Shown here: positions 1 to 54,690 of the stretch, one piece after another
Numbering within the stretch: the first letter of the stretch is position 1
How the letters are laid out: each line of letters starts with the position of its first letter
Source: Syntrophobacterales bacterium
GTDB lineage: Bacteria; Desulfobacterota; Desulfobaccia; Desulfobaccales; 0-14-0-80-60-11
Assembly: GCA_023512475.1 (NCBI GenBank)
Contig: JAILZL010000001.1
Location: forward strand, 11,516 to 75,515
Reading direction: 5' to 3'
DNA: 64,000 nt
Program-made: the position numbers and the translations under genes
Notes under the pieces: generated by a model
What the model was told of the DNA's origin: nothing
The model's database searches: none
Seen by the model: only the letters and a program-made list of their open reading frames with translations

Positions 1-1880
1 GCTTCGCCGCCAGCTCCCCCTTCACCCCGGTGAACACCAGCAAAGACGGCATCTACGTCTGCGGCGTCTTCCAGGCCCCCAAGGACATTCCCCAGTCGGT
101 GATGGAGGCCTCCGCCGCCGCCGCTGCCGCCGGGGAGCTTCTGGCCGCGGCCCGCAACACCGCCATCAAGAAGCCGGAGATCCCCCCGGAGCGGGACGTC
201 AGCGGCGAGGAACCCCGCATCGGCGTCTTTGTCTGCAACTGCGGCATCAACATCGGCGGGGTCATCAACATCCCCAAGCTGGCGGAATACGCCAAGACCC
301 TCCCCCATGTGGTCTTTGTGGATGAAAACCTCTTCACCTGCTCCGCGGACACCCAGGCCAAGATCATCCAGGCCATCCAGGAGCACAACCTTAACCGGGT
401 GATGGTGGCCTCCTGCAGCCCCCGGACCCACGCCCCCATGTTCATGGAGACCATCCAGCAGGCGGGCCTCAACCCCTACCTCTTTGAGATGGCCAACATC
501 CGGGACCAGGATTCCTGGGTGCACATGCACGAGCCCGAGGCCGCCCTGGAGAAGGCCAAGGACCTGGTGCGGGGCGTGGTGGCCCGGCTCCGGAACCTGG
601 AGCCCCTCCACAAGATGGAGTTCCCGGTCACCAAGGCCGCCTTGGTGATCGGCGGCGGCGTGGCCGGCATGACCGCGGCCCGCTCCATCGCCGACATGGG
701 CTTCCAGGCCTACCTGGTGGAGAAGACCGACAAACTGGGGGGCAACGCCTGGAATCTGGTCATCAGCCACCGGGGCTATGATTACCAGGGCTTCCTCACC
801 GACCTCATCGACACGGTGACGAAGCACCCCAACATCGAGATCATGTACAATTCCGAGGTGGTGGAGACCAGCGGCTTCATCGGCAACTACCGCTCCACCG
901 TCAAGACCCCTGCCGGCAACCGGGACCTGGAGCACGGCGTCACCGTCATGGCCACCGGCGGCCAGCCTTACAGCCCGGAGGAGTACCAATACGGCCAGCA
1001 TCCGCACGTCTACACCCTCTTTGAGCTGGACAAGCTCATCGCGGCCAAGGACCCCCGTCTTGCGGAGGCCAAACAGGCGGTCTTCATCCAGTGCGTGGGC
1101 TCCCGGGAGCCCCAGCGGCCCTACTGCAGCCGCCTCTGTTGCACCCATTCCGTGGAGAGCGCCCTGGCCCTGAAGGACCTCACCCCCGAGATGGATGTCT
1201 TCATCCTCTACCGGGATATGCGCACCTACGGCGAAAAGGAGCTCCTCTACAAGGAGGCCCGGGAGAAGGGGGTGATCTTCATCCGCTTTGACCTGGACAG
1301 CAAGCCCAAGGTACGCACCAAACCCGACCGGGGCCTGGAGGTGACGGTGGTGGATCCCATCCTGGGGATGCCGGTGGTGCTGCACCCCGATGTCCTCACC
1401 CTGGCCAGCGCCGTGCTCCCCAACGATGTGGAGGAGCTGGGGGAACTCTTCAAGGTGCCCAGAAACGCCGAAGGCTTCTTCAACGAGGCCCACGCCAAGC
1501 TGCGGCCGGTGGACTTCCCCACCGACGGCATCTTCCTGGCGGGTCTGGCCCACTACCCCAAACCCATCGACGAGTCCATCGCCCAGGCCAAGGCCGCGGC
1601 CGGCCGGGCCGCCACCTTCCTGGCCCTGGACACCGTCAAGGTGGGCGGCATCGTGGCCGTGGTGGATCAGGACAAGTGCGCCGTCTGCCTCACCTGCGTG
1701 CGCACCTGCCCCTTCATGGTGCCGGTCATCGACTACACCGTGGACGCGGCCTACATCGATCCGGCCAAATGCCAGGGCTGCGGCGTCTGCGTCTCCGAAT
1801 GCCCGGCCAAGGCCATTCAGCTGAAACACTACACCGACACCCAGATCATCGCCCAGGAACTGGCCCTGGCCGCCAGCTGA
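1..1880 (+). CDS. hdrA: HdrA-like FAD/Fe-S flavoprotein (heterodisulfide reductase subunit A family, large tandem HdrA/HdrL-like form); 5' end lies outside the window
   Basis: The frame of ORF 30..1880 stays open to the window edge. It has a GGGVAG dinucleotide-binding motif, an HdrA-type Cys region (CSRLCCTHS) and a C-terminal 2x[4Fe-4S] ferredoxin (CAVCLTCVRTCP, CQGCGVCVSECP). mvhD follows immediately. Confidence 0.85.
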   Translation, partial: FAASSPFTPVNTSKDGIYVCGVFQAPKDIPQSVMEASAAAAAAGELLAAARNTAIKKPEIPPERDVSGEEPRIGVFVCNCGINIGGVINIPKLAEYAKTLPHVVFVDENLFTCSADTQAKIIQAIQEHNLNRVMVASCSPRTHAPMFMETIQQAGLNPYLFEMANIRDQDSWVHMHEPEAALEKAKDLVRGVVARLRNLEPLHKMEFPVTKAALVIGGGVAGMTAARSIADMGFQAYLVEKTDKLGGNAWNLVISHRGYDYQGFLTDLIDTVTKHPNIEIMYNSEVVETSGFIGNYRSTVKTPAGNRDLEHGVTVMATGGQPYSPEEYQYGQHPHVYTLFELDKLIAAKDPRLAEAKQAVFIQCVGSREPQRPYCSRLCCTHSVESALALKDLTPEMDVFILYRDMRTYGEKELLYKEAREKGVIFIRFDLDSKPKVRTKPDRGLEVTVVDPILGMPVVLHPDVLTLASAVLPNDVEELGELFKVPRNAEGFFNEAHAKLRPVDFPTDGIFLAGLAHYPKPIDESIAQAKAAAGRAATFLALDTVKVGGIVAVVDQDKCAVCLTCVRTCPFMVPVIDYTVDAAYIDPAKCQGCGVCVSECPAKAIQLKHYTDTQIIAQELALAAS

Positions 1881-1941
1881 ACCATACCCGGGGAGGGCAG
1901 GCCACGCCCTCCCCGGATATCCAGAAAATAAGGGAGGCATC

Positions 1942-2403
1942 ATGACCGCCACCGACTGGACCCCGAAAATCATTGCTTTCTGCTGCCGCTACTGAGCCTA
2001 CAGCGCCGCGGACCTGGCAGGTTCGATGCGGTTGCAATACCCCCCGGAAATCAAGATCATCATGGTTCCCTGCACCGGCCGGGTGGATATCCTCCACCTC
2101 CTCAAGGCCTTCGAAGGCGGGGCGGATGTGGTCTTCGTGGCCGGCTGCCTGGAGGGCGAGTGCCATTACCTCTCCGGCAACATCCGGGCCCGCAAGCGGG
2201 TCACCAAACTGAAGAAGGATCTGGAGGCCATCGGCTTCGAAACCGAGCGCCTGGAGATGTTCAACCTCTCCTCGTCGGAAGGGCCCAAATTCGCCGCCAT
2301 CGCCAAGGAGATGGCGGAGCGGGCCTACCGCCTGGGGCCCAGCCCGGTGAGGAAGGAGGCCCGGGAGGCCTGGCTGGCCAAACAGAAGGCCGCCAGCGCC
2401 TGA
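1942..2403 (+). CDS. mvhD: MvhD/VhuD-type hydrogenase delta subunit-like protein, selenocysteine-containing (in-frame TGA at 1993-1995)
   Basis: AAGGGAGG Shine-Dalgarno at 1929-1936 precedes ATG 1942. Translation is MTATDWTPKIIAFCCRY-U-AYSAADLAGSMRLQYPPEIKIIMVPCTGRVD. The TGA sits where the family has the Cys/Sec of the CCNWC/U motif, and the frame continues into track ORF 2026..2403. A hairpin at 2005-2032 with a GGC apical loop lies about 21 nt after the UGA. Confidence 0.8.
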
Positions 2404-2475: not shown

Positions 2476-2504
2476 CTGAGGCGGGAGACCCCCTCCCGCC
2501 TCAG
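2476..2504 (+). terminator. GC-rich hairpin downstream of mvhD (12-bp perfect stem CTGAGGCGGGAG/CTCCCGCCTCAG, 5-nt loop)
   Basis: A perfect inverted repeat is visible in the sequence. The following T-tract (GTTTGAC) is weak. Confidence 0.4.
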
Positions 2505-2564
2505 GTTTGACAAAGGGTCATCTGGCCGGGAGGGACGTGGGGCCCTGAATCCCTGCGACGAATG

Positions 2565-2596
2565 AAAAAAGGCCGGCAGCACCCGCTTCCGGCCTT
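2565..2596 (-). terminator. Intrinsic terminator after the tlpA-like gene
   Basis: The minus strand reads AAGGCCGG-12 nt loop-CCGGCCTTTTTT. This is an 8-bp stem followed by a T6 run, about 70 nt after the stop at 2664. Confidence 0.5.
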
Positions 2597-2663
2597 GCTT
2601 TGCCGCCCAGGCAGGAGGAGGAGAGGGGGCCTCCTTGCCGCCTGCCTTTCATTTCCCCCCCGG

Positions 2664-3161
2664 TTAGAGCAGGGGCTGGATCAGTTTGAGGAATTCCTCT
2701 TTTTTGCGGGTCCCCAGCACTTTGTGGGCGACATTGCCCTGTTTGTCCACGATGATGGTGGTGGGCACCACCTCCACCCCGCCATAGGCCTTGGCCACCT
2801 TGTCATCCCCCAGCAGCACCGGATAGGTGACCCCCAGCTGCTTGATGAGGAAGCGGAGCTGGGTCGGGTCCGAGGACAGGCCGATGCCGATGGTCTCGTA
2901 GCCCTTGCCCTTGAGCTCCTGGTTGATCTTCTCCAGATCCGGCATCTCATCCCGGCAGGGACCGCAGAAGAAGGTGAAGAAGTTGATGAGCACCACCTTG
3001 CCCTTGAACTGGCTGAGGCTGTATTCCTTCCCTTCCAGGATATCCTTGAGGGTAAAATCCGGGGCCGCCTTGCCCTGTGCTCCTGCCGCTCCGGCCCCTG
3101 CCACCAGCAGGGCGGTGATGACCAGCAGCACTCCCAGCCGCGCGCCGGTTCTGTTCGCCAT
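2664..3161 (-). CDS. Secreted thioredoxin-fold thiol:disulfide oxidoreductase (TlpA/ResA family)
   Basis: N-terminal signal-like hydrophobic segment, FCGPC (CxxC) active site, TlpA-like length (165 aa). AAGGAG RBS before ATG 3161. Confidence 0.85.
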   Translation of the reverse strand: MANRTGARLGVLLVITALLVAGAGAAGAQGKAAPDFTLKDILEGKEYSLSQFKGKVVLINFFTFFCGPCRDEMPDLEKINQELKGKGYETIGIGLSSDPTQLRFLIKQLGVTYPVLLGDDKVAKAYGGVEVVPTTIIVDKQGNVAHKVLGTRKKEEFLKLIQPLL

Positions 3162-3205
3162 GGGATTCTCCTTCTCACGGCCTAAATGGATTTCGTGCTG
3201 ACCCC

Positions 3206-19867: not shown

Positions 19868-20392
19868 ATGGCTTATTCGGAAATCGTCATGGATCATTTC
19901 AAGAATCCCCGCAATGTGGGAGAAATCCCGGACGCCGACGGGGTGGGAGAAGTGGGCAACCCCGTGTGCGGGGACATGATGAATGTCTACATCAAGGTGA
20001 AAGACAACGTCATTGAAGACGTGAAGTTCAAGACCTTCGGCTGCGGCGCCGCCATCGCCGTCTCCAGCATGATCACCACCCTGGCCAAGGGCAAGACCCT
20101 GGAAGAGGCCATGAAGATCACCAACAAGGACGTGGCCGAGGCCTTGGGGGGCCTGCCCAAGAACAAGCTGCACTGCTCCAACCTGGGGGCCGACGCTCTG
20201 CACGCCGCCATCAAGAACTATCTGGACCGCAAGGCCGGCAAGGTCCCGGATCTGGCCAAGGACCGGGAGGAACACATCAAAGGGGCCGGCGGGGAGGGCT
20301 GTTACTGCCCCTACTGTCACAAGGAGACCCTGGAGGAAGCGCCCTTCTGCCTCTTCTGCGGGTCTGAAATCCCCCACGAGCACGATCACTGA
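19868..20392 (+). CDS. nifU: NifU/IscU-type Fe-S cluster scaffold with C-terminal Cys-rich (zinc-ribbon-like) extension
   Basis: NPVCGD, FGCGAAIA and LHCS are the three IscU cluster-ligand motifs. The tail carries CYCPYC...CLFCG. Confidence 0.9.
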   Translation: MAYSEIVMDHFKNPRNVGEIPDADGVGEVGNPVCGDMMNVYIKVKDNVIEDVKFKTFGCGAAIAVSSMITTLAKGKTLEEAMKITNKDVAEALGGLPKNKLHCSNLGADALHAAIKNYLDRKAGKVPDLAKDREEHIKGAGGEGCYCPYCHKETLEEAPFCLFCGSEIPHEHDH

Positions 20393-20409
20393 GTCCGGGG
20401 AGGACAGCC

Positions 20410-21576
20410 ATGGCCCTCATTTATCTGGATCACCTCTCCGGCACGCCCCTGCACCCCCGGGTGAAGGAGGCCATGATCGACTGCATCCAAAACGTCTTCG
20501 GCAATCCCGTAAGCGACCACCAGGTGGGCCAGCGGGCCGCCGCCCTGCTGGAGCGGGCCCGGGAACAGGTGGCCGCCCTCATCCACGCCGACCCCGGGGA
20601 GATCGTCTTTGAATCCTGCGGCACCGAATCCATCAACCACGCCATCAAGGGCGTGGCCCTGGGCCTGAGGGAAAAGGGCCGCCGCATCATCACCTCCAAT
20701 ATCGAACACAAAGCCGTCCTCAATTCCCTGCGCACCCTACGGCTCCTGGACTACCAGGTGACCTCCCTGGATGTGGATGCCTACGGGCTGGTGGACCCCG
20801 CCCAGGTGGACAAGGCCATCACCCCGGACACCATCCTGGTGAGCATCATGCTGGCCAACAACGAAATCGGCACCATCGAGCCCATCGCCGACATCGCCAA
20901 AATCTGCAGGAAGCACAAGGTCCTCTTCCACACCGACGCGGTGGACGCGGTGGGGGTCATCCCGGTGGACGTCAAAGACCTGGGGGTGGATCTCCTGTCC
21001 CTGGCCGCCAACCAGTTCTACGGCCCGCCCGGGGTGGGGGCGCTGTACATCAAAAAGGGCACCCCGGTGTGGCCCCTGTTGGACGGCGGCGCCCAGGAGA
21101 ACAAGCGCCGGGCCGGCACCGAAAACCTTTTCGGCATCGTGGGCATGGGAGTGGCGGCGGAAGTGGCCCAAGAGGAGATGGCCGAGCGGGCCCCCCGGAT
21201 GCAGCGCCTGCGGGACAAGCTGCGGGAAGGCCTCCTGGCCCGCATCCCGGAGATCATCATCAACGGCCACCCCACCCAGTGCCTGCCCCATCTCCTGAGC
21301 GTCTCCATCAAGTACATCGAAGGCGAAAGCCTCATGCTCATGCTGGATGAAGAGGGCATCGAGGTGGCCACCCGCAGCGCCTGCGCCTCCGGGTCGCTGC
21401 GGGCCTCCCACGTGCTCATCGCCACCGGCCTGGACTTCGCCACCGCCCAGGGCACCCTGCTCTTCAGCCTGGGCCGGGACACCACCGAGGCGGAGATCGA
21501 CCGGGTCCTGGAGGTCATGCCGCCCATCGTCCAGACCCTGAGGGATATGTCGCCCCTGTACAAGCGGGCCCAATAA
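20410..21576 (+). CDS. nifS: Cysteine desulfurase (NifS/IscS class V aminotransferase)
   Basis: N-terminus IYLDHLSGTP and SNIEHKAV. The active-site loop is ATRSACASG. Adjacent to nifU. Confidence 0.9.
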   Translation: MALIYLDHLSGTPLHPRVKEAMIDCIQNVFGNPVSDHQVGQRAAALLERAREQVAALIHADPGEIVFESCGTESINHAIKGVALGLREKGRRIITSNIEHKAVLNSLRTLRLLDYQVTSLDVDAYGLVDPAQVDKAITPDTILVSIMLANNEIGTIEPIADIAKICRKHKVLFHTDAVDAVGVIPVDVKDLGVDLLSLAANQFYGPPGVGALYIKKGTPVWPLLDGGAQENKRRAGTENLFGIVGMGVAAEVAQEEMAERAPRMQRLRDKLREGLLARIPEIIINGHPTQCLPHLLSVSIKYIEGESLMLMLDEEGIEVATRSACASGSLRASHVLIATGLDFATAQGTLLFSLGRDTTEAEIDRVLEVMPPIVQTLRDMSPLYKRAQ

Positions 21577-44106: not shown

Positions 44107-44544
44107 TCATTGTTGCTCCGCCAGGCGGCTGTGCTCGATTTTCATGCAGCGGTCCATGACCACCAGCATCCCGGCGTCCCGGGCCTTGGCCCCGGCGATG
44201 GGCTCCGCCAGCCCCAGCTGCATCCACACCGCCTTGGCCCCCACCTGGAGGGCCTCCTCCACCACCCCGGGAATGGCCTCCACGTTGCGGAAGATGTCCA
44301 CCACCTCCACCGGGAAGGGCACGTCCTTCAGGCTGGGATAGCAGCGCTCCCCCAGGATCTCGGAGCAGCCGGGCCTGACCGGCACGATGCGGTAGCCGTG
44401 CTCCTTAAGGTAGCGGGCCACCTGATGGCTGGGCCGGTCCGGCTGGGGGGACAGCCCCACCACCGCCACCACCCGGTAATCCGTCAGGATCCGGCGGATA
44501 ATCTCCGGGGTGCTGTGCCAGGTTTCCTGCGTGTCTGCGGCCAT
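44107..44544 (-). CDS. CoA-binding domain protein (YccU/YneT family)
   Basis: VAVVGLSPQPDRPSHQVARYL and PVRPG motifs. GGAGGAGGG RBS. Confidence 0.8.
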   Translation of the reverse strand: MAADTQETWHSTPEIIRRILTDYRVVAVVGLSPQPDRPSHQVARYLKEHGYRIVPVRPGCSEILGERCYPSLKDVPFPVEVVDIFRNVEAIPGVVEEALQVGAKAVWMQLGLAEPIAGAKARDAGMLVVMDRCMKIEHSRLAEQQ

Positions 44545-44616
44545 CTGCCCTCCTCCTGCGGCCCCGGGAGGGACGCGGGATGCCCGCCCTGGCCGGGATG
44601 GCCTTCCCGCCCCGCC

Positions 44617-45405
44617 TCAGGTGGCCGCCGGGACCGCCTCCTGGGGGGCCAGGGACAGGCTCTTGTCGTCGGAAATCTTGAAGACCATCTTGATATATTT
44701 GTAACCGAAGCGCAACAGCTCCAGATCGTCCTCCCAGATGCGCTGCTGGGTGTCGTCATCCACCTGGAAGATGGTGAGGAAACGGCTCTTGAAAATGAAG
44801 CGCCGGAACTGATCCAGGTCATACATGACCATGTAGAACAGGTCCTGCTCCCGTTCCGTGATGTCCGGCTTGCCGAAGCTGGAGCGCCTCAGCATCATGG
44901 CCTTCCATTCCCGGTTCATCTCGTCATAATAGTCCGCGCCCTGATCCTTGCGCCAGGTCTCCACATTCCACTCGTCCTGTTCCTCAAACCCCTTGCAGTG
45001 GGGCTCTCTTACCAGGAAGTAGAACTCATCCAGGCCCTCCTCGGTGATGAGCACTCCCTGGCCCACCGGGTAGTAGCGGCAGGTGGCAGGGCGGTCGCTG
45101 TACACCAGACAGCCGGTGACCGGCCGCACAAAGGGGCATTTGCCGCCGTAGCGGGGCATGTCCATGATCACCAGGGGCAGGCCGGACTGCTCATGCTCCT
45201 CCCGGCGGGTGTATCGCTCCAGGAAATCCCCGGAGTCGATGCCCAGCCGGCCTTTGAGGCGCAGGATATCGTACGGGGTCAGGATGATAGTGGTCCGGCC
45301 GCAGCATTCGGTGAAGCAGGGCACCCCCGGATGGCACTTGAAGCGGAACCGGCTCTCCGGGGTCATCTTCACCGGGCGGACCACCTTCATATTCAAATCA
45401 ACCAT
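44617..45405 (-). CDS. YkgJ-family Cys-cluster (putative Fe-S/zinc) protein
   Basis: Start trimmed to ATG 45405 (MVDLNMKVV). CHPGVPCFTECCG cluster plus CPF...C downstream. Confidence 0.7.
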   Translation of the reverse strand: MVDLNMKVVRPVKMTPESRFRFKCHPGVPCFTECCGRTTIILTPYDILRLKGRLGIDSGDFLERYTRREEHEQSGLPLVIMDMPRYGGKCPFVRPVTGCLVYSDRPATCRYYPVGQGVLITEEGLDEFYFLVREPHCKGFEEQDEWNVETWRKDQGADYYDEMNREWKAMMLRRSSFGKPDITEREQDLFYMVMYDLDQFRRFIFKSRFLTIFQVDDDTQQRIWEDDLELLRFGYKYIKMVFKISDDKSLSLAPQEAVPAAT

Positions 45406-45551
45406 GGTCGTGTTCCTCAGGTGTGACTTCTGAAGTCCGATGGGGGCAGGGCGGGCGTCCGGCCCGCAATTCCCCCCGCCGGAAAAAACCGGGCGGGTGC
45501 CCCCTGCTTGGGGATGTTTTATTGTACCGCAAAGGGGAGGAAAGCGCCCGC

Positions 45552-45590
45552 AAAAAAGGGGAGGGCACCCGCCGACGGCCGTCCCTCCCC
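45552..45590 (-). terminator. Intrinsic terminator after qmoC
   Basis: The minus strand reads GGGGAGGG-17 nt loop-CCCTCCCC followed by TTTTTTG, about 60 nt after the qmoC stop. Confidence 0.5.
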
Positions 45591-45650
45591 CATCCGTCAC
45601 CTGTCGCCGGGGCCTCACCTCCGGCCCCGGCCAGGAGCGTTATCCCTGCC

Positions 45651-46763
45651 TTAAAACCCGCGGCCCGACATGCGGGCGTACAGCATGGCCACGGTGCGGT
45701 AGACCAGGTGCGCCAGCTTGGTGTAGGGCGCAAAGAAGAACAGAATGAACACGCTGGTCAGGTGCAGGAAATACACCGGATAGGCCAGCGAGGCGATTCC
45801 CAGCAGCCGAAACAGCCAGGAGCCCGCGCCGGTGATCCCCACCGCCGCCACGATGTAGATGAGCTGCCAGTCAAAGTAGGTGCCAAAGCCCGCTTTGTCG
45901 GCGTTGGCCTGCCGGGCCACGATGATCTGGTAGATGCCGTAGATCAAAAGCGCCGTGCCCAACAGGGCCAACATCTTGAAGGGGCTGAAGAAGGGATAGG
46001 GCCCCGGCCAATGGAAGACCCATTCCCGGACAAAGGCCCAGGCCGTCACCAGCCCCAGGGTGATGAAGCCGAACACCACCAGGAGGTGGTTGAGGCTGCG
46101 GGCGTAGGTGGTTTCACATTTCTTGAAGCGGTTGTGCAGCAGGATGTCCTGCAGCACCGGGATCAGGTTGGCCAGGACGCTCCCCTGCAGTTTCACCGCC
46201 CAGGGGCTGGTATTGATGTCCCGCCAGTAGCGCATCACTCCCTGGGCCAGGACCGCCACGGCAAAAGCCGCCGCGCCCATGAAGATGATATCCACCATCC
46301 ACCAGGGGAACATTTTGGAAAACACGATGGTCCCCTCGGGGATGGCCAGGCGGCCGGTGACCTTCAGGGCGGCGAGCAGGAGCAGCACCGGAAAGGCGAT
46401 GAGCAGGGGCAGGAAGCGGAGGTCCCCCACCATGCGGGCCAGCTGCGGCGGGATAGCATAATTCTCGATGCACATCTGCCGCAGTACCCCCAGCACCTCC
46501 CCGGGCTTGGCACCCCGGGGGCAGTGCACCGTGCAGTCACTGCACTGGTGGCACAGCCAGATGTCCGGGCTCTTGATGACCTCTTTCAGACCCCACTGGG
46601 CCTGGAGCATCTCCTTCCGGGGGAAGGGGTGGTTTTCCGGGGTCAGATTGCAGACCACGCAACAGGTGTCGCACTGGTAGCATTTCTTGGCGTCCTGCCC
46701 CCCGGCGGCCATGATCCGCTGGACGAACTTCAGATCCGGTTTGATGAGGATTTCGTCAGCCAT
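45651..46763 (-). CDS. qmoC: Quinone-interacting membrane-bound oxidoreductase subunit C (HdrC-like Fe-S domain fused to HdrE-like membrane domain)
   Basis: N-terminal CYQCDTCCVVC and CHQCSDCTVHCP cluster motifs followed by about 6 TM helices. Located after qmoAB. Confidence 0.9.
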   Translation of the reverse strand: MADEILIKPDLKFVQRIMAAGGQDAKKCYQCDTCCVVCNLTPENHPFPRKEMLQAQWGLKEVIKSPDIWLCHQCSDCTVHCPRGAKPGEVLGVLRQMCIENYAIPPQLARMVGDLRFLPLLIAFPVLLLLAALKVTGRLAIPEGTIVFSKMFPWWMVDIIFMGAAAFAVAVLAQGVMRYWRDINTSPWAVKLQGSVLANLIPVLQDILLHNRFKKCETTYARSLNHLLVVFGFITLGLVTAWAFVREWVFHWPGPYPFFSPFKMLALLGTALLIYGIYQIIVARQANADKAGFGTYFDWQLIYIVAAVGITGAGSWLFRLLGIASLAYPVYFLHLTSVFILFFFAPYTKLAHLVYRTVAMLYARMSGRGF

Positions 46764-46775
46764 GGATCATACCTC

Positions 46776-48941
46776 CTACATTTCCTTGAAGGGGTTGGGG
46801 CCGATTTCTCTCACCCGGTCCACAAACTCCTGCAGGAGGCTGGGCAGGCGATCGAATTCGGAGATGGCGATCTGGAACTGCTGCACCCGGTCGGCCTCCA
46901 GTCCCAGCTTGTCCAGGGTTTCCGAGAGCTTGGTGAGCCGGTAGGCGCACAGCTCGCTGCCCTTGGCAAAGTGGCACTGGTAGTCGTCCCCGTACTTGCA
47001 CCCCAGCAGCACCAGGCCATCCACCCCCCGGGAAAGGGCGTCAGACACCCACACCAGGTTGAAGGAGCCCATGCAGCGCAAGGGGATGAAGCGGATGTTG
47101 GGCGGCAGCTTCAGCCGGTGTTGGGCCAGGGCGTCCAAGGCCGGGTAGGCGTCGTTTTCACACACCAGCCCCACGATCATGAAAGGCGCCTTGGGATCCT
47201 CTTCGTCCTCGATCTCCGGCACCTCCAAGGCCTTGATCATGGAGCCGATGATGTCCACGCTGTAATCCTTGAAATTGACGATGCGCTCCGGACAGGCCCC
47301 CATGCAGGTGGCGCAGCGCCGGCAGCGGTTGATCTTGTAGAAGGGTGTCCCCTTTTCGTCCTCCTCGATGGCGCCGAAGGGGCACTCCTCCGTGCAGCGC
47401 TTGCACTGGGTGCAGCGTTGCATGAAGGGATCCGGGAAGGTGATGTCCCAGGCCCGGGGATGGACCGCCACGCCCGCCTCGATGTGCTGCAGAGCCTGGA
47501 TGGCCTTCATGGCCGCGCCGGCGCCGTCTTCGATGGCCGCCGGCATCCGCATGGCCTGCCGCACCGCGCCCGCGGCGTAGATGGCGGTGCGCCGGGTCTC
47601 ATACTGAAAGCAGATGAAATTGCTGTCGGCAAAGCCGTTGTACAGCTCCAGATCCGGGAGACCCGGCCCCTGGCGGTAGTCCAGGTTGAGGACCGGGTTG
47701 TCCGCGGTGGCCGGCACCATGCCGGTGGCCAGCACCACCAGGTCCGCCTCGAAGGCCACGTTCTGGCCCAGGAGGCTGTCGGTGGCCTTCACCAGGAGCT
47801 TGCCGCCCCTGGGCTCCACCTGCGTGACTTCCGCCTTGGTGAGCATCACCCCGGGGTCGCTTTGGGCCTCTTTATAAAAGAGCTCCGCCACCCCCGGGAC
47901 CCGCATGTCCTTGTAGAGAATCATGGCCACCGCTTCCGGGTTCTGCTGGCGCACATACAGGGCCTGCTTCAGGCTGGTGGCGCAGCAGAAATCGGAGCAA
48001 TACGGCAGATGCTCCGGATCCCGGGACCCGGCGCACTGGATGAAAACCACCTGCTGGGGCGCCTTGCCGTCGGAGGGCCGGGTAATCTTGCCCTTTCTGG
48101 CCATCTCCTCCAGCTCCACGTTGGTGACCACGTCCGGGGAGAGGCCGTAGCCCAGCTTGTCCAGTTTGCTGGCGTCATAGGGGCGCCAGCCCGCGGCCAG
48201 GACGATGGCCCCGGCCCGGAAGGTCTCCTCCTCGCCGCCCCGGCTCACGGTGACATCCAACAGGCCGGGCTGGCCGGCGCACTGCACCAGTTCGGTCCCG
48301 GTCATGACCTTGATCTTGGGCTCGGCCACAACCTCCTTCACCAGGGCGTGTACCGGGGAGTCCACCAGCGCGGAATAGGGGTAGCCGGTGGGGGTGGATT
48401 TATAGAGTTTGGCGCCGTAGCCGCCCAGCTGGGCCTCCTTCTCCACCAGAACCACCGGATACCCCTGCCGGGCGGCGGTGAGGGCGGCGGAGAGACCGGC
48501 GGCGCCGCCGCCGATGACCAGGATGGTCTTGGAGATGGGCTCCGTCTGCCAGGGTTCCGGCAGATCCGCCTTCTTGAGTTTGGCCGCCCCCATGCGGATA
48601 TAGTCTTCCGCCAGCATCTGGGTGGGCTCTTCGTTGGGTTCCTGGGTCCAGGCCACCAGCTCCCGGAGATTGACCCGCTCCACCAGGGTACCGGGGAAGT
48701 CGAACTCCTCGTACTTCACCCGGGGGGAACAGGCGGCGATGAGGAGGCAGTTGAAGCCCTCGGCCATGTCTTTCCTGATCATCTCCAGGCCGTCGGGGCT
48801 GCAGAGGATGTCGTGCTCCTTGACCTCCGGGATCTTACCTTCTTTCTTGGTGATCTTGGCCAGACTCTCGAAGTTCAGGGCGGCCCCGATGCCACAGCCT
48901 TTGCACAGATATGCCGCGTATTTCCGTTCTTCCAGTGCCAT
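46776..48941 (-). CDS. qmoB: Quinone-interacting membrane-bound oxidoreductase subunit B (HdrA-like with MvhD-like C-terminus)
   Basis: VIGGGAAGLSAAL FAD motif, two ferredoxin-type Cys clusters (CTQCKRCTEECP, CRRCATCMGACP) and a C-terminal MvhD-like region (GLVCENDAYPALD...LRCMGS). Confidence 0.9.
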   Translation of the reverse strand: MALEERKYAAYLCKGCGIGAALNFESLAKITKKEGKIPEVKEHDILCSPDGLEMIRKDMAEGFNCLLIAACSPRVKYEEFDFPGTLVERVNLRELVAWTQEPNEEPTQMLAEDYIRMGAAKLKKADLPEPWQTEPISKTILVIGGGAAGLSAALTAARQGYPVVLVEKEAQLGGYGAKLYKSTPTGYPYSALVDSPVHALVKEVVAEPKIKVMTGTELVQCAGQPGLLDVTVSRGGEEETFRAGAIVLAAGWRPYDASKLDKLGYGLSPDVVTNVELEEMARKGKITRPSDGKAPQQVVFIQCAGSRDPEHLPYCSDFCCATSLKQALYVRQQNPEAVAMILYKDMRVPGVAELFYKEAQSDPGVMLTKAEVTQVEPRGGKLLVKATDSLLGQNVAFEADLVVLATGMVPATADNPVLNLDYRQGPGLPDLELYNGFADSNFICFQYETRRTAIYAAGAVRQAMRMPAAIEDGAGAAMKAIQALQHIEAGVAVHPRAWDITFPDPFMQRCTQCKRCTEECPFGAIEEDEKGTPFYKINRCRRCATCMGACPERIVNFKDYSVDIIGSMIKALEVPEIEDEEDPKAPFMIVGLVCENDAYPALDALAQHRLKLPPNIRFIPLRCMGSFNLVWVSDALSRGVDGLVLLGCKYGDDYQCHFAKGSELCAYRLTKLSETLDKLGLEADRVQQFQIAISEFDRLPSLLQEFVDRVREIGPNPFKEM

Positions 48942-48943
48942 GA

Positions 48944-50203
48944 CTACCTCCCGCCCAGACTGATGAGACTCTTCAGAGCGGCCCCGGTGCCTTCCTGCAC
49001 CGACTTGGCCACATCCAAGGGGCTCTTCATGCTGCCCACCGCGGTGATGCCGTCGGGCAGGAGCTCCGGAATGATGAAGCCTTCCGGGGTGTAGGACAGG
49101 GGCAGGGGCAGCGGCGCATTCTTGGTGGACGGCACCATACCCACCGCCAGCACCACCAGGTCATAGGCGGCGGTGAGCTTGCCCTCACCCAGGGTGTTTT
49201 CCGCGGTGACCACCACGTTGTCGCTGCCCACTTCCTGCTCCACCTTGGCGATCTTGCCCCGGATGAGCTTGACCCCCGCCATGTCCCGGACCTTCCAGAG
49301 GAACTGCTCATAGCGGCCGGGGCAGCGCAGGTCGATGTAGTAGATGTGGGCCTCGGCTTCCGGATCCTGTTCCAGGAGGTAGGTGGCCTGCTTCAGGGAG
49401 GCCATGCAGCAGATATAGGAGCAATATGGCAGGTGATTCTCATCCCGGGAGCCGGCACACTGCACGAAGGCCACCTTCTTGGGGGCGGCGCCGTCGGAGG
49501 GCCGCAGGATCTTGCCGCCGGTGGGGCCGTTGCTGGCCGCCAGGCGCTCCATCTGCATGTTGGTGATGACATTTTTCACCCGGCCGAAGCCGAGGTTGTC
49601 GGCCTGGCTGATGTCGTAGAGCTCCCAGCCCCCGGAGAGGACGATGGCCCCCACCTGGAAATTCAGGGTCTGGGGCTGCATGTCCAACTCAATGGCCTCG
49701 TAGGCGCAGGCCTCCTTGCACTTCTGGCCGCAGTCCCCCACGCAGGCCTCGGGGTCGATGACGTATTTGAAGGGGAAGGCCATGTCGTAGGGCAGGTAGG
49801 CCGCCTTGGTCTTGTCCAGGCCGTAATTGAAGGTATTGACCCGCTCCGCCGGGCAGGCCTCGGCGCAGGCATTGCAGGCCACGCAGCGGTCATTGACGTA
49901 GCGGGGTTTCAGGGTCACGGTGACGTCAAAATTGCCCGCACTCCCGGAGATCTGGGTCACTTCCGCCAGGGTGTAGAAGGTGATGTTGGGATTCTCCCGG
50001 ATCCGGCGGAAATTGATCTCCAGACCGCAGGTGGGCGGGCAGAGTTTGGGAAAGTATCGGTGGAGCTGTGCGACCCGGCCGCCCAGATAGGGTTCCTTTT
50101 CCACCAGGATCACCTGGGTGCCGGCTTCCGCAGCTTCCAGAGCCGCGGTCAGGCCGCTCATGCCTCCCCCGATGACCAGAATCTTTTGATCAGCGGCGTT
50201 CAC
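48944..50203 (-). CDS. qmoA: Quinone-interacting membrane-bound oxidoreductase subunit A (HdrA-like flavoprotein)
   Basis: GTG start behind GAAGGAGGA. VIGGGMSGLTAALEAAE FAD motif and the HdrA-like CPPTCG and FVQCAGSRD segments. Confidence 0.9.
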   Translation of the reverse strand: MNAADQKILVIGGGMSGLTAALEAAEAGTQVILVEKEPYLGGRVAQLHRYFPKLCPPTCGLEINFRRIRENPNITFYTLAEVTQISGSAGNFDVTVTLKPRYVNDRCVACNACAEACPAERVNTFNYGLDKTKAAYLPYDMAFPFKYVIDPEACVGDCGQKCKEACAYEAIELDMQPQTLNFQVGAIVLSGGWELYDISQADNLGFGRVKNVITNMQMERLAASNGPTGGKILRPSDGAAPKKVAFVQCAGSRDENHLPYCSYICCMASLKQATYLLEQDPEAEAHIYYIDLRCPGRYEQFLWKVRDMAGVKLIRGKIAKVEQEVGSDNVVVTAENTLGEGKLTAAYDLVVLAVGMVPSTKNAPLPLPLSYTPEGFIIPELLPDGITAVGSMKSPLDVAKSVQEGTGAALKSLISLGGR

Positions 50204-50410
50204 ACCAATCCTCCTTCAGACATTCCGGAAACCCCGATAGGCGTGCGGCGGGTTCCGGGGTCCGTGGCTCAGACCGGATTTGCGGGTTCGGTTGGGGGAA
50301 AGTTGCGGCAGATGTCATGGATTTCCCCAGGGGCGCAGGCGGGGCCGGGTGGCGGCCGGCTGAGCTTTCGCCGGCCCAGGCCCGCGGATGCCGCCCGGGC
50401 TCATCCCTCC

Positions 50411-50455
50411 TGAGAAAAATGGCCGTGGCGGTGCAGACACAAGACCACGGCCATT
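50411..50455 (-). terminator. Terminator-like/attenuator hairpin between aprA and qmoA
   Basis: The minus strand reads AATGGCCGTGG-16 nt-CCACGGCCATTTTTCTC (11-bp stem plus U-run). A 22-bp perfect GC palindrome precedes it at 50467-50488, directly after the aprA stop. Confidence 0.5.
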
Positions 50456-50504
50456 ATCATCCGGGCCCGGGGCCCCGCGGGGCCCCGGGGTGATGGCGCG
50501 GAAG

Positions 50505-52469
50505 TTACTTCACCAGCTGCACGTACGGCTTGGTCTCAAACTTCCACTCGTTGGTCTTGGGATCGTACTGGGAGATGGTGAAGACCTTCCACTTGTTGTC
50601 ATCGATGCTCGGGAAGTCCGCCCGATAGTAGTAACCCGGGTACCGGGTCTCTTCCCGGAACAGGATGTGCCGCAGGTGGGCCTCACCGGCGATGATGCGG
50701 TGATACTGCTCCCAGGCCCGCATCAGCTCATGCAGATCCGCCGCGGCCATGCGCTGGGCGTCTTCCTTGAGGAAGGTGAGCCGGCGCAGACCCTCTTCCA
50801 GCATGGGCTTGTTGGTCATGTACATGGTGGCGATGCCGCCCACATACTCGTCCATGATCTTCTGGAGGCGGCTCTGGATCTGCTTGGGCCGCAGGTAGTT
50901 GGGGTTGATGTCCGGCGCGGTGGTGTAGTCCTTGTACTTCTCGTAGATCTCGAAGGGCAGGTAGATCTCGGCGATGACGTCGTCGATGTTCTGACCCGGC
51001 TCGAGTTTGTCGTCCTTGTGGTCCAGGATGAAGGCGATGGCGGCCTTGGCAGCCATGCGACCCTCGGCATGGGACCCGGAGGAGAACTTGTGCCCGGAGG
51101 CGCCCACGCCGTCACCGGCGGTGAACAGGCCTTCCACGGTGGTCATGCGGTCATAGCCCCAGAACCAGTCATCGGGGGCGCCGAGATAATTCTTGGAGGG
51201 ACCGGAGACCCACAGACCGGCGCAGCCGGCATGGGAACCCAGCAGATAGGGCTCCGAGGGGATGATCTCGGAGGGCACCTTGTCGGGTTCCATGTTCATG
51301 GAGGCCCACAGGCTGGCGGCGGAGATGGACATGTCGAGGAAGTCTTCCCAGGCTTCCGCTTCCAGGTGCTTCAGCTCTTTCTTGGAGAGCACCTTGGCCA
51401 GCTCCTGCATCGCCTTGTCGGTGTGCATCAGGATGGGCCCGCGGCCTTCCCGCATCTCGATCATGGCGGCATGGTTCCGCAGGCAGGTGCCGGGGGAGTC
51501 GGCGTAGCCGGGATATTCCTGCTTCACCCGCTCCCAGTTCTTGGTCATGTAGTCTTCGTTGTAGGCGTTGGTGGCCTGGGCCTTGAAGAACAGGAACCAG
51601 GCGCCCACCGGGCCGTAGCCGTCCTTGAAGCGGGCCGGGACGAACCGGTTCTCCATCAGCACCATTTTGGCGCCGATCTCGGCGGGCATGGCGTAGGTGG
51701 AGCCGGCGTTCCACACCGGATACCAGGCACGGCCCTGACCTTCACCCACGGACCGGGGCCGGAAGACGTTCACCACGCCGCCGCAGGCCACCAGCATGGC
51801 CTTGCACTTGAACACGAAGGTCTTGTGCTCCCGGACGCTGAAGCCCACCGCGCCGCACACCCGGTTGGGGTTGTTCTTGTCGGTGAGGAGCTTGACGATG
51901 AAGACGCGCTCGTAGATGTTTTCCATCCCCAGCGCGTTCTTGGCGGCCTCGGCCACGATGACCTTGTAGGACTCACCGTTGATCATGCACTGCCAGCGGC
52001 CGGACCGGCAGCATTTGCCGCCGTCTTTCAGGAGGGGCAGGCCCTCGTCCCGGGCCACCTGGCCGTCCACGGTATGGCCTTCGGCGTCCTTCTGCCAGAT
52101 GGGGAGACCCCACTCCTGGAAGTCATAGACGCTCTGGTCCACGTGGCAGCCCAGGGAGTGCACCAGGTCTTCCCGGATGATGCCCATGAGGTCGGTGCGC
52201 ACATACTTGACGTAGTCGTCCACCGGGTTTTCCGGGCCGATGTAGGTGTTGATGGCCGACAGCCCCATGGCCACCGCGCCGGACCGGTCCAGAGCCGCCT
52301 TGTCCACCAGGGTGACCTTGAGGCCCAGCTGCTTGGCGTAGGCCATGGCTTCCACCGCCGCACCGCAGGCCGCCATGCCGCCGCCCACGATGAGGAAGTC
52401 GGTCTCAATGGTTTCCACCGGCGGCTTCTGACAATAAGACCATTTGCAGAATTCTCTTTCCAGAGCCAT
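50505..52469 (-). CDS. aprA: Adenylylsulfate (APS) reductase alpha subunit
   Basis: 654-aa flavoprotein, FLIVGGGMAACGAA FAD motif, AprA-typical sequence throughout. Follows aprB. AAGGAGGG RBS. Confidence 0.95.
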   Translation of the reverse strand: MALEREFCKWSYCQKPPVETIETDFLIVGGGMAACGAAVEAMAYAKQLGLKVTLVDKAALDRSGAVAMGLSAINTYIGPENPVDDYVKYVRTDLMGIIREDLVHSLGCHVDQSVYDFQEWGLPIWQKDAEGHTVDGQVARDEGLPLLKDGGKCCRSGRWQCMINGESYKVIVAEAAKNALGMENIYERVFIVKLLTDKNNPNRVCGAVGFSVREHKTFVFKCKAMLVACGGVVNVFRPRSVGEGQGRAWYPVWNAGSTYAMPAEIGAKMVLMENRFVPARFKDGYGPVGAWFLFFKAQATNAYNEDYMTKNWERVKQEYPGYADSPGTCLRNHAAMIEMREGRGPILMHTDKAMQELAKVLSKKELKHLEAEAWEDFLDMSISAASLWASMNMEPDKVPSEIIPSEPYLLGSHAGCAGLWVSGPSKNYLGAPDDWFWGYDRMTTVEGLFTAGDGVGASGHKFSSGSHAEGRMAAKAAIAFILDHKDDKLEPGQNIDDVIAEIYLPFEIYEKYKDYTTAPDINPNYLRPKQIQSRLQKIMDEYVGGIATMYMTNKPMLEEGLRRLTFLKEDAQRMAAADLHELMRAWEQYHRIIAGEAHLRHILFREETRYPGYYYRADFPSIDDNKWKVFTISQYDPKTNEWKFETKPYVQLVK

Positions 52470-52502
52470 TATGTTGTCCCTCCTTGAATTTGGGCAGCGT
52501 GG

Positions 52503-52925
52503 TTACTCGGTCCGGGCCGGGCCGGTGAAGAAGCCGGGTTTCCGCAGGTCATCAACGCTGGGCAGGGTCTTGCCCTTGAAGACGTCAATGGAGCCCTCCG
52601 GGGTGGTCCGGATGGGGAACTTGAACCGCTTCACGGTCTTGCCATCCCGGAACTTGATGGTCCACATGATGGAGTCGGTGCCCCGCAGCGGGAAGGTGCT
52701 GGAGCCCAGGGGCATGATGTCGGCATAGTGCCGCACCTCAATGGCCTGCTGAGGGCAGATCTTCACGCAGTTGAAGCACTCCCAGCACTGCTCCGGTTCC
52801 TGGTTGTAGGCCTTTTTCTTCTCCGGATCCAAGACCATGAGGTCATTGGGGCAGATGTACTGGCATGCGGTCTTGTCCAGGGCCTTGCAGCCGTCACATT
52901 TTTCCACAATCACAAAACTCGGCAT
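52503..52925 (-). CDS. aprB: Adenylylsulfate (APS) reductase beta subunit
   Basis: MPSFVIVEKCDGCK...CQYICP and CWECFNCVKICP [4Fe-4S] motifs. AprB-specific C-terminal tail. Confidence 0.95.
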   Translation of the reverse strand: MPSFVIVEKCDGCKALDKTACQYICPNDLMVLDPEKKKAYNQEPEQCWECFNCVKICPQQAIEVRHYADIMPLGSSTFPLRGTDSIMWTIKFRDGKTVKRFKFPIRTTPEGSIDVFKGKTLPSVDDLRKPGFFTGPARTE

Positions 52926-53035
52926 GGGAAAAACCTCCTGTTTAGGGTTGAATGGTAGTTAGCTGTCCCCAGGAAAGGGGCCCACGCCGCCTTTCCCAAT
53001 ATCTCCCGCCGCCCCGGGGGGCGGCTGGCCATCCC

Positions 53036-53371
53036 TCAGGCGATCTCCTGGTTCCAGAAGGCGTCCCCGGCCCTCTCGAACAGGTGGCAGAATTCGCTCA
53101 TGACGTTCAGCTTCTTGCGCTTCACCACCATCTCGTAGATCTTGTCCTTGACATACTTGGGCAGCAGCTCAATGGACTTGGTGGTGGCGGCATCGAACTT
53201 GGCCATGGGGAAGAGCTTCAGCACCTTGTCCCGCTCCTCGGCGGTGCAGGGCACGGCCAGAACCTTCATGCCGGCCAGCTCTTCCTTCAACAGGTCCGCC
53301 AGGCCCGCGGCCTGCAGCTCTTTGTAGCGCTCTTCGTTGATCCATATATTGATGGGGTATGTCTCTGCCAT
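53036..53371 (-). CDS. Hypothetical 111-aa protein embedded between sat and aprB
   Basis: Clean ORF (MAETYPINIWINEERYKEL...) with the Lys/Glu-rich, AAG/GAG-biased codon use also seen in sat and aprBA. No motif recognised. Confidence 0.7.
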   Translation of the reverse strand: MAETYPINIWINEERYKELQAAGLADLLKEELAGMKVLAVPCTAEERDKVLKLFPMAKFDAATTKSIELLPKYVKDKIYEMVVKRKKLNVMSEFCHLFERAGDAFWNQEIA

Positions 53372-53412
53372 GTCCCTTCCTCCTCAGCGTGATGACCGCC
53401 AACAGCCTGGGT

Positions 53413-54690
53413 TTAGAGAGGCTCGATGCTGAAGGCCGGTTTGGCCTTGGCCAGATATTCCGGGCCCACAAAGGGGGAGCCGAACCCGTATTTCTTGGCC
53501 GCCTCCATGACGATATCGAAGACCTCCGGCCGGAAGATGAGGCGGGTGGGCTTGACCTCGTCAATGAGGATGGAGCGGATCTTGGTGCCGCTGAACTTCT
53601 GGTGCTCATTCCAGTGGCCGCACAGGCCGATGCAGGTGACCTCGCCGCAGTGGGGGCAATAGACCCATTCCAGCACGAAGATGGGGGTGATGAAGAGCTT
53701 CTCCCGGGGGATGCTCATCAGCAACCGGTGGGCCTCGTAGGATTCATAGTAGGTGCCCACGCCGGCGTGGTCCCGGCCGAACATGTGGTGGGTGAGCCCC
53801 AGATTGGCCCGGATGATGGAATGGTGCACCGCCTCCTTGGGACCGGCATAGCGCATATCCCAGAAGGTCATGGTGGTCATGTGGATGTCTTCCCGGAAAT
53901 AGCCGTACTTCTTCAGGCCGTCCTGGGCCAGCACGATGGCCTCGTCGATGTAGTCGCCGGCCCGCTTCTCGCCCACGATGCAGTTCACCAACACACCGGA
54001 GATGGCCTTGCCGATGACCTCCATGGACTCCACCGGCAGTTCCCCATGGGCGGCGATGTAGGCGTGCTTCATCAGCCACTCATGGCCGGAGTGGGGCACG
54101 TTCCGGGTCTGGTGGGCCACAATGCGCTGCCAGCCCAGCTCCTGAAACTTCATCCGGTGCTGCCGGGGGGTGAGGAAGTAGGGCGTGAAGGGCTCCCGGA
54201 TCTTGGGTTCGTTCACCAGGGTGATCTTGCCGCCCAGGAACTTGTCCTTATAGGCATAGGTGCGGGCCACCCCGGGGTGCTTCTCCTCTTTGGTGCCGTA
54301 CACATCAAAGGCCATCTCGTCCTTGGGATAGGTGAAGATCTCCTCGATCTCGAAGATGGCCAGGGGATTGTCGTCGTAGGTGAGGAGGATGCTCTCCCCT
54401 TCCTTGACCCCATACTCGGCGATCTCTTGGTCCGAAATGTCAAAAACGATGGGAATGCTCCACAGGGTGCCGTCCGCCAGCTCCATCTTCTTGCAGACCG
54501 CATCCACATCGGCCCGCTTCATGAAGCCTTCCAGGGGTGAGAAGAAGCCGTAGGCGATGCTGATGCACTCCGTCGCCATCTGCCGGGAGGCGGGCATGGT
54601 CTTCAGGCCGGCAATCTTCTTCTTGGCTTCGGTCTTGTCGGCAATGACCCGTTCTACCAGTGGTTTCCCACCATGGCCGATCATTTCCAT
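53413..54690 (-). CDS. sat: Sulfate adenylyltransferase (ATP sulfurylase)
   Basis: HQTRNVPHSGH (QxRNxxHxGH) motif and FGRDHAG. 425-aa dissimilatory type. Heads the sat-aprBA-qmoABC block. Confidence 0.95.
   Translation of the reverse strand: MEMIGHGGKPLVERVIADKTEAKKKIAGLKTMPASRQMATECISIAYGFFSPLEGFMKRADVDAVCKKMELADGTLWSIPIVFDISDQEIAEYGVKEGESILLTYDDNPLAIFEIEEIFTYPKDEMAFDVYGTKEEKHPGVARTYAYKDKFLGGKITLVNEPKIREPFTPYFLTPRQHRMKFQELGWQRIVAHQTRNVPHSGHEWLMKHAYIAAHGELPVESMEVIGKAISGVLVNCIVGEKRAGDYIDEAIVLAQDGLKKYGYFREDIHMTTMTFWDMRYAGPKEAVHHSIIRANLGLTHHMFGRDHAGVGTYYESYEAHRLLMSIPREKLFITPIFVLEWVYCPHCGEVTCIGLCGHWNEHQKFSGTKIRSILIDEVKPTRLIFRPEVFDIVMEAAKKYGFGSPFVGPEYLAKAKPAFSIEPL

Follow-up and report, generated by a model that had tools for sequence, protein, structure and literature searches.

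A probable selenocysteine-encoding mvhD gene with an invariant SECIS core, truncated in public gene models of Thermodesulfobacteriota

Introduction

In the window, by which we mean the whole 64-kb stretch of DNA analysed here, a short open reading frame (2026..2403) downstream of an HdrA-like gene is preceded in the same frame by a TGA codon. The question raised by this locus is whether the TGA ends a short upstream peptide or is read as selenocysteine (Sec) within one longer mvhD gene. The family concerned, PF02662 (FrhD/MvhD/VhuD), is listed among the selenoprotein families with experimental verification and has a CxxU motif; selenoprotein genes of the frhA-frhD-hdrA type occur in clusters in Deltaproteobacteria, and the Thermodesulfobacteriota rank with the lineages that have the most selenoproteins (PMC13188914). 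In Desulfobacterium autotrophicum HRM2, each hdrL gene is followed by an mvhD gene, four of the MvhD proteins contain Sec (mvhD1, 2, 3 and 5), and the sel machinery is complete (PMC2702500). HdrL is a fusion of an HdrA-like part with a NAD(P)H-binding, glutamate-synthase-like part (Strittmatter et al. 2009, PMC2702500; PMC5947623), and in MvhD and VhuD electrons from an input module travel over a [2Fe-2S] cluster to the FAD of HdrA at which bifurcation takes place (PMC13518236). The initial annotation of this DNA had stated that MvhD-like selenoproteins are catalogued in Deltaproteobacteria, which agrees with the literature (PMC13188914, PMC2702500), and had proposed such a gene here.

Results

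Structure of the mvhD gene and relatives of its product

Translation from ATG 1942 gives 17 sense codons, MTATDWTPKIIAFCCRY, before the TGA is reached, and past the TGA the same frame continues as AYSAADLAGSMRLQYPP... and joins the listed ORF, ending at the stop codon 2401-2403. These coordinates, proposed in the initial annotation together with a strong ribosome-binding site ahead of ATG 1942, were all confirmed on the window sequence, with AAGGGAGG as the binding site (Table 1). The public gene calls, which come from six independent assemblies, start at ATG 2026 (Met29) and predict a product of 125 aa, a model that drops the first 28 residues of MvhD.

Table 1 Features of the hdrL-mvhD locus, in window coordinates.
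Feature	Coordinates	Strand	Remarks
hdrL-type gene, 3' part (625 codons), HdrA-like FAD/FeS module	3..1880	+	Open from base 3; runs off the window start
Shine-Dalgarno sequence AAGGGAGG	1930..1937	+	4 nt 5' of the ATG; read from sequence
Full mvhD CDS, predicted	1942..2403	+	153 aa with Sec (U) at residue 18, plus stop; from translation and Pfam match
In-frame UGA, predicted selenocysteine (CRYU, last position of the CCxxC motif)	1993..1995	+	Cys column in homologues
Extended stem-loop of the candidate SECIS	2001..2035	+	Alternative lower stems 2005-2009/2028-2032 or 2001-2006/2029-2035
Apical hairpin of the candidate SECIS, GGACCU-GGC-AGGUUC	2010..2024	+	6-bp stem (5 Watson-Crick pairs and 1 G-U), GGC loop at 2016-2018
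12-bp perfect GC-rich hairpin CUGAGGCGGGAG/CUCCCGCCUCAG, then GUUUG	2476..2504	+	Between convergent genes

With Cys in place of the UGA, the product matched the Pfam FlpD profile (PF02662) at 160.8 bits (gathering score 22.3), and its residues 10-132 corresponded to profile positions 1-123 of 123. Since the whole 123-position profile is covered, the region upstream of the UGA belongs to the domain. Alignment of the 153-aa product to MvhD/VhuD sequences, suggested earlier as a check, gave full-length matches, among them end-to-end alignments to solved MvhD chains with E values between 2e-41 and 1e-34 (7bkb_F, E=2e-41; 5odc_D, E=5e-39). The earlier claim that the last Cys of the motif is Sec in methanococcal VhuD was borne out by PDB 9SFI chain K, the VhuD of Methanococcus maripaludis, in which a non-standard residue X lies exactly at the UGA column and a second X at the C69 column. 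In the homologue alignment C44, C69 and C74 were invariant and C15 was present in every full-length row, and the conserved Cys pattern of PF02662 (an N-terminal CxxC and three downstream Cys) was found, position 18 being Cys in the homologues and UGA here. The VhuD equivalog model NCBIfam NF045873 was tried and rejected (154.5 bits, cut-off 215). No hydrogenase large or small subunit was found among the annotated neighbours, either in the window or at the related locus L001, which carries an identical mvhD. The MvhD of the window would work like VhuD without being that equivalog.

A second FlpD domain is encoded in the window at the C-terminus of QmoB. Because this domain keeps the Cys equivalents of C15, C44, C69 and C74 and has Asp at position 18, residue 18 of MvhD is likely not a cluster ligand, and the QmoB domain suggests that it may be a redox-active neighbour of the cluster.

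Comparison of the UGA position across relatives

To compare the UGA position among relatives, we performed a DNA-level scan with one genome per species, which yielded 80 related loci of Thermodesulfobacteriota (approximately 61-89% protein identity) from MAGs labelled Desulfobaccales, Syntrophobacterales, Desulfobacterales and others. The codon at the UGA site was TGA in 67 of the 80 loci and TGC or TGT in the other 13. In a separate protein alignment, 13 full-length Cys homologues read FCCR[YW]C(A/S)Y, with an invariant Cys at the UGA column. Two classes of matches appeared in the protein search: about 44 of the best 120 matches were 124-126 aa long, began at Met29 and were 82-100% identical, and the second class was 150-170 aa long and 65-75% identical. 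The initial annotation had considered that orthologues might begin at the equivalent of 2026 and lack the CCxxC region; this is not the case, and the full-length Cys homologues carry this region.

In all 68 Sec-type sequences (67 loci and the window), an ATG was located 15-17 codons 5' of the TGA, with a GGAG-type site ahead of it. Over the ten codons preceding the TGA, entropy was 0.28, 0.38 and 1.19 bits at codon positions 1, 2 and 3, respectively, as is typical of translated DNA. The identical TGA, flanks and hairpin were present in six independent assemblies from the same species as the window. The suggestion that other TGA-containing genes may be mis-called was not borne out within the window, where a search by frame-specific GC signatures found none. 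The only same-frame pair, on the minus strand (44617-45618 and 44107-44544), was considered as a UGA-containing gene and rejected, since the two ORFs look like neighbouring genes and the linker between them resembles non-coding DNA.

Conservation of the hairpin downstream of the UGA

The hairpin proposed at 2005-2032 folds as described, with 5+6 bp, a 3-nt bulge on the 3' side, a GGC loop and -12.4 kcal/mol. Its apical 6-bp part was invariant in the comparison. The lower stem 2005-2009/2028-2032 pairs in the window's clade but was not conserved outside it; roughly half of the Sec-type sequences, those in which AGR encodes Arg30, disrupt it. The alternative lower stem 2001-2006/2029-2035 also pairs in this clade and was likewise not conserved. 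The 15-nt core GGACCUGGCAGGUUC (2010-2024) was identical in 64 of 64 distinct Sec-type sequences. Within it the wobble sites 2010, 2013, 2016, 2019 and 2022 were frozen in all 64, and every other degenerate third position in the 63-nt stretch compared had 0.88-1.95 bits in the Sec-type sequences. In 12 Cys-type homologues the same five wobble sites had entropies of 0.8-1.8 bits; just one to four of the six stem pairs were still Watson-Crick in Cys-type genes, and the Cys-type locus L050 retained 6/6 pairs. As the wobble sites are fixed in Sec-type sequences and drift in Cys-type sequences, a constraint at the RNA level exists only where the UGA exists.

The loop begins 21 nt past the A of the UGA, which leaves a 20-nt spacer, and the extended stem-loop has a minimum free energy (MFE) of -12.4 to -15.4 kcal/mol. 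The published model of bacterial SECIS elements (PMC13188914) describes a loop of 3-9 nt, an upper stem of 4-16 bp, a G in the first two loop positions, a distance of 16-37 nt from the UGA and an MFE of at most -7.5 kcal/mol. The SECIS that had been expected here lies within all these constraints with its GGC loop, 6-bp stem, 20-nt spacer and MFE. When the single sequence was compared with dinucleotide shuffles, its fold was no better (z=+0.76 for 1990-2050 and z=-0.14 for 1993-2035, in DNA of about 65% GC). Because the shuffled controls fold as well, stability of the single sequence was dropped as a criterion and comparative data were used. By the comparison of loci, the combination of the TGA with an invariant hairpin is far beyond chance.

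A scan of the whole window at Rfam gathering thresholds gave no match. Among the Sec-type sequences no significant covariation was detected in the apical stem or in either lower stem; five double changes from C-G to G-C were found at 2009/2025, all in one clade. Further copies of the element, searched for with the core CCUGG[C/U]AGG in the related loci and the window, were chance or coding occurrences only. The codon register offers a possible explanation for the missing covariation. Four of the six pairs (2010-2024, 2012-2022, 2013-2021 and 2015-2019) link a protein-fixed base to a wobble base, the remaining two link two protein-fixed bases, and the first loop G (2016) is itself a wobble base. 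Selection for SelB binding in this register would freeze every wobble base of the element, and the stem may lack covariation because pairing dictates each of these bases.

Alternative explanations for the in-frame TGA

The gene callers in six assemblies treated the TGA as a true stop, which would make the gene the 125-aa ORF from ATG 2026 and leave for 1942-1995 no role beyond that of a leader peptide of 17 codons. ATG 2026 can serve as a start codon, and the approximately 44 short proteins among the best 120 database matches have exactly this form. However, the 125-aa form is without the first 19 positions of the Pfam domain, two conserved Cys among them, and in the full-length Cys homologues Met29 is conserved at an internal position (MRLQYPP). 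No ribosome-binding site lies ahead of 2026, whereas the one ahead of 1942 is strong and conserved, and the 17 upstream codons show amino-acid conservation and homology to the N-terminus of Cys-type MvhD. A stop codon, moreover, is not expected to alternate specifically with TGC or TGT between genomes. Termination at this TGA is strongly disfavoured by the comparative data, and we regard it as extremely unlikely. A pseudogene, or an assembly or sequencing error in place of TGC or TGT, would need no more than a single base change to give TGA, but identical TGA and flanks recur in six independent assemblies from different samples, by which an assembly error is ruled out; TGA is also present in 67 species-level genomes, and purifying selection acts on both sides of it. 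This explanation, to which we assign next to no probability, is already refuted by recurrence across independent assemblies.

It was also considered whether the UGA is read through without Sec, by near-cognate suppression with Trp or Cys, by Cys carried on tRNA-Sec under selenium limitation, or by a lineage-wide reassignment. In favour of this, no sel genes were found in the part of the source genome covered by the window. Against it, TGA is the commonest ordinary stop in the window, used by 31 of 51 gene models, which shows that the code has not been reassigned, and the UGA alternates solely with Cys codons. The constrained hairpin at the canonical distance fits the model of a SelB-dependent SECIS, and Sec occupies the equivalent position in relatives that have been worked on in experiments, BamF (Sec19) and the VhuD of M. 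maripaludis. We therefore consider read-through without Sec very unlikely. The reading that we prefer, with a probability of about 0.93, is that 1942-2403 is one Sec-encoding mvhD gene.

Genes for the selenium machinery were looked for in the neighbourhood. Neither the 64-kb window nor the flanks of 43 related loci yielded selA, selB, selD or tRNA-Sec. With ARAGORN the window gave no tRNA of any kind, and the 43 related loci gave only ordinary tRNAs and one tmRNA. A six-frame scan of the window and 87 loci with the motifs G[C/U]GCK for SelD, GH[VI]DHGK for SelB and DKxxGGPQ for SelA gave no credible match. About 60 window ORFs were also annotated with Pfam, and none of them was a sel gene.

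Gene context of mvhD

The ORF upstream of mvhD matches the NCBIfam HdrA2 and HdrA models as well as Pfam Pyr_redox_2 and Fer4, and it ends 61 nt 5' of mvhD. At locus L001 the upstream gene is complete and encodes 1472 aa, with an N-terminal module of Fer4_20 and Pyr_redox_2/Pyr_redox_3 (NfnB/GltD-like, approximately residues 95-540) and a C-terminal HdrA-like module composed of an FAD-binding domain and a dicluster ferredoxin (approximately 1060-1455). From these domain matches, the upstream gene is predicted to encode an HdrL-type flavoprotein (NfnB-like and HdrA-like), the NfnB-like part being taken from L001. An HdrA-like orthologue lies immediately 5' of mvhD in 75 of 79 related loci, and the genes 3' of mvhD are not conserved among the related loci.

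Downstream of mvhD, the region 2404-2520 folds at -68.5 kcal/mol (z=-5.2). The GC-rich hairpin in this region has no T-run and was for this reason missed by a consensus terminator scan; the hdrL-mvhD transcript probably ends at this hairpin. The window also encodes sat, aprB, aprA and qmoABC, which indicates a host that reduces sulfate by the dissimilatory route or is metabolically close to organisms that do.

Discussion

We propose that the UGA at 1993-1995 would be decoded by Sec-tRNA(Sec) delivered by SelB, which would bind the hairpin formed within the Ala-Asp-Leu-Ala-Gly-Ser codons (core 2010-2024), 20 nt 3' of the UGA. The product would be a [2Fe-2S] adaptor of the MvhD/VhuD/FlpD family, with the upstream fusion of NfnB/GltD-like and HdrA-like modules as its probable partner, and its cluster would pass single electrons to or from the bifurcating FAD. 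Sec18 is predicted to lie beside the cluster, where it would probably undergo selenenylsulfide cycling and thereby link one-electron and two-electron chemistry. An electron flow from NAD(P)H through HdrL-MvhD to the machinery of sulfate reduction has been suggested in the literature (PMC2702500, PMC5947623).

The closest parallel, compared by description, is the hdrL-mvhD arrangement of D. autotrophicum HRM2, which belongs to the same phylum and likewise has an hdrL fusion followed by a small Sec-encoding mvhD without adjacent mvhA or mvhG. In HRM2, however, HdrL1 and HdrL3 are themselves selenoproteins, whereas the HdrL of the window has no internal UGA, and the window comes from a high-GC, uncultured lineage related to Desulfobaccales/Syntrophobacterales, whose best genome match has 89% identity. 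A second parallel is BamF, from the class II benzoyl-CoA reductase of Geobacter metallireducens; its Sec19 is close to a [2Fe-2S] cluster, and an intermediate with a selenenylsulfide has been put forward (bioRxiv 10.64898/2026.04.10.717634). BamF is also an MvhD-homologous [2Fe-2S] adaptor on an HdrA-type bifurcating subunit, and its N-terminal Sec19 is equivalent to U18. It is more than 100 residues longer, carries a second Rossmann domain and a winged helix, and is part of the BamBCDEFGHI complex, whereas the MvhD of the window is minimal at 153 aa, and no bamB/C/D-like genes were found nearby.

Among the archaeal proteins, VhuD (9SFI chain K, E=2e-36) and the MvhD of Methanothermococcus thermolithotrophicus (5ODC chain D, E=5e-39) belong to the same fold family. 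At the U18 column the former has its non-standard residue and the latter has Cys, and at the C69 column, where VhuD has its second Sec, the MvhD of the window has Cys. The archaeal proteins sit in Mvh/Vhu hydrogenase-HdrABC complexes, and the archaeal SECIS is in the 3' UTR, whereas that of the window would be inside the CDS. The latter placement resembles the bacterial SECIS consensus, to which the hairpin is similar in lying in the ORF just 3' of the UGA, in its 3-nt loop starting with GG and in its 6-bp upper stem. Compared with elements of the E. coli fdhF type, the loop of the window is 3 nt (GGC), or UGGCA when the closing U-A pair is opened. The bulged U of E. coli fdhF has no evident counterpart in the hairpin of the window.

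Much of this is already known: MvhD/FrhD is a verified selenoprotein family, Sec-containing MvhD beside hdrL was reported in 2009 (PMC2702500), and nothing here is conceptually new. What is modestly new is that the 15-nt SECIS core does not vary at all between orders, that the codon register can explain this, and that public protein collections are mis-annotated on such a scale. The four pairs between fixed and wobble bases, together with the two between fixed bases, would make the ADLAGS motif 'pre-adapted' as a SECIS and would not allow it to covary. It is possible, though we put the odds somewhat against it, that at least two orders of Thermodesulfobacteriota share one frozen SECIS core, GGACCUGGCAGGUUC, which is built from ADLAGS codons 'pre-adapted' in this way and unable to covary.

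The reading of 1942-2403 as one gene means that public models of 125-126 aa are systematically wrong, having lost the N-terminal CCxxU and with it one probable cluster ligand and a putative redox-active selenol, and that this mis-annotation touches dozens of clusters in large protein collections. It would also mark the source organism as a selenium user and place Sec in the electron-input adaptor of an HdrL-type complex for flavin-based bifurcation. For such adaptors, recent structural work on BamF and VhuD points to a selenenylsulfide relay (BamF: bioRxiv 10.64898/2026.04.10.717634). If the shared core is undescribed, it would serve as an exact-match signature for re-annotating truncated mvhD entries, such as the roughly 44 among the best 120 matches, and the loci would form a natural system for the rate of SECIS decay after conversion of Sec to Cys, with the Cys-type L050 as an example. 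The locus would then also be a case of a Sec18 selenenylsulfide relay in the NAD(P)H-linked HdrL-MvhD bifurcating module of sulfate reducers.

Truncated mvhD entries and variation among related loci

When the full-length product of mvhD (1942-2403, 153 aa, with the UGA at 1993-1995 read as selenocysteine at residue 18) was compared with a public protein collection, about 44 of the best 120 matches were entries of 124-126 aa, with residues 29-153 alone represented. Gene calls from JGI, ENA, Logan and NCBI therefore commonly and systematically omit the N-terminus of mvhD genes of the Sec type, in which the selenocysteine codon is TGA.

Related loci from other assemblies differed at the selenocysteine codon or in the upstream gene calls. 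In a Desulfatirhabdium butyrativorans MAG (L050:4210-4272), mvhD is of the Cys type, with TGT at this codon, and its SECIS hairpin retains the GGC loop and a fully paired stem (six pairs: four Watson-Crick and two wobble). The nearest relative of this gene within the set is the Sec-type mvhD of L061 (86% identity). This looks like a recent Sec-to-Cys conversion with a fossil SECIS left behind. In L004:3748-9855 (JGI 3300043543), the C-terminal part of mvhD (125 aa) is identical and the upstream calls differ: three genes, encoding a 310-aa FAD/2Fe-2S-thioredoxin-like, a 636-aa NuoF-like (Complex1_51K) and a 1084-aa HdrA-like protein, replace the single 1472-aa HdrL. The difference may reflect either a genuine exchange of modules between strains or divergent gene calling.

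RNA structures and the convergent gene flanking mvhD

hdrL and mvhD are separated by a 61-nt spacer (-28 kcal/mol, z = -3.3) that contains an 11-bp perfect GC-rich hairpin at 1888-1916 on the plus strand, CCGGGGAGGGC...GCCCUCCCCGG, with a 7-nt loop. Because this hairpin has no T-run, a role in intercistronic processing or stability is possible. Downstream of the mvhD stop codon, very strong structure was predicted at 2404-2520 on the plus strand (-68.5 kcal/mol, z = -5.2), where mvhD and the redoxin gene converge. A perfectly paired 12-bp hairpin lies within this region at 2476-2504; it was not called by a consensus terminator scan.

The product of the redoxin gene is a secreted, TlpA/ResA-like thiol-disulfide oxidoreductase whose active site, FCGPC, is the Cys form. 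It gave weak, below-cut-off matches to the selenoprotein-related NCBIfam models WAxxUGC_long, SelL-related and PrxU. A 207-aa plus-strand ORF at 2562-3185 is the antisense shadow of the redoxin gene.

Other genes of possible selenium relevance

The nifU-like and nifS/iscS-like genes are an Fe-S assembly pair; cysteine desulfurases of the nifS/iscS-like class can also use selenocysteine as a substrate. The CxxCxxCC-domain and CoA_binding_2 genes share one frame, with a single TGA between them at 44619-44621, and were considered as one UGA-containing selenoprotein gene (44107-45618, minus strand). They were judged to be adjacent genes, because the 24-codon linker is non-coding in appearance and the CoA_binding_2 gene starts with its own ATG.

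Features of the window outside the hdrL-mvhD unit
Feature	Position	Strand	Basis of name
Redoxin gene	2664-3161	minus	
nifU-like (NifU_N) and adjacent nifS/iscS-like (class V aminotransferase) genes	19868-21576	plus	
CoA_binding_2 protein gene	44107-44544	minus	
CxxCxxCC-domain protein gene	44617-45618	minus	
370-aa ORF at qmoC position	45651-46763	minus	gene order
qmoB	46776-48941	minus	Pfam domains and gene order
qmoA	48944-50203	minus	Pfam domains and gene order
aprA	50505-52469	minus	Pfam domains and gene order
aprB	52503-52925	minus	Pfam domains and gene order
DUF6955 gene, next after sat	53036-53371	minus	Pfam domains and gene order
sat	53413-54690	minus	Pfam domains and gene order

A second FlpD/MvhD domain and the sulfate-reduction cluster

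A second FlpD/MvhD domain of the window lies in QmoB (residues 589-714) and shares 30% identity with the mvhD product described above. The equivalents of C15, C44, C69 and C74 are all retained in this domain, whereas the selenocysteine column is occupied by Asp (CENDAY versus CRYUAY in MvhD). The qmoB gene is part of a cluster at 45651-54690 that is complete for dissimilatory sulfate activation and reduction, and in which the ORF at the qmoC position had no match in the Pfam search. This sat-aprBA-qmo cluster indicates that the host is a sulfate reducer.
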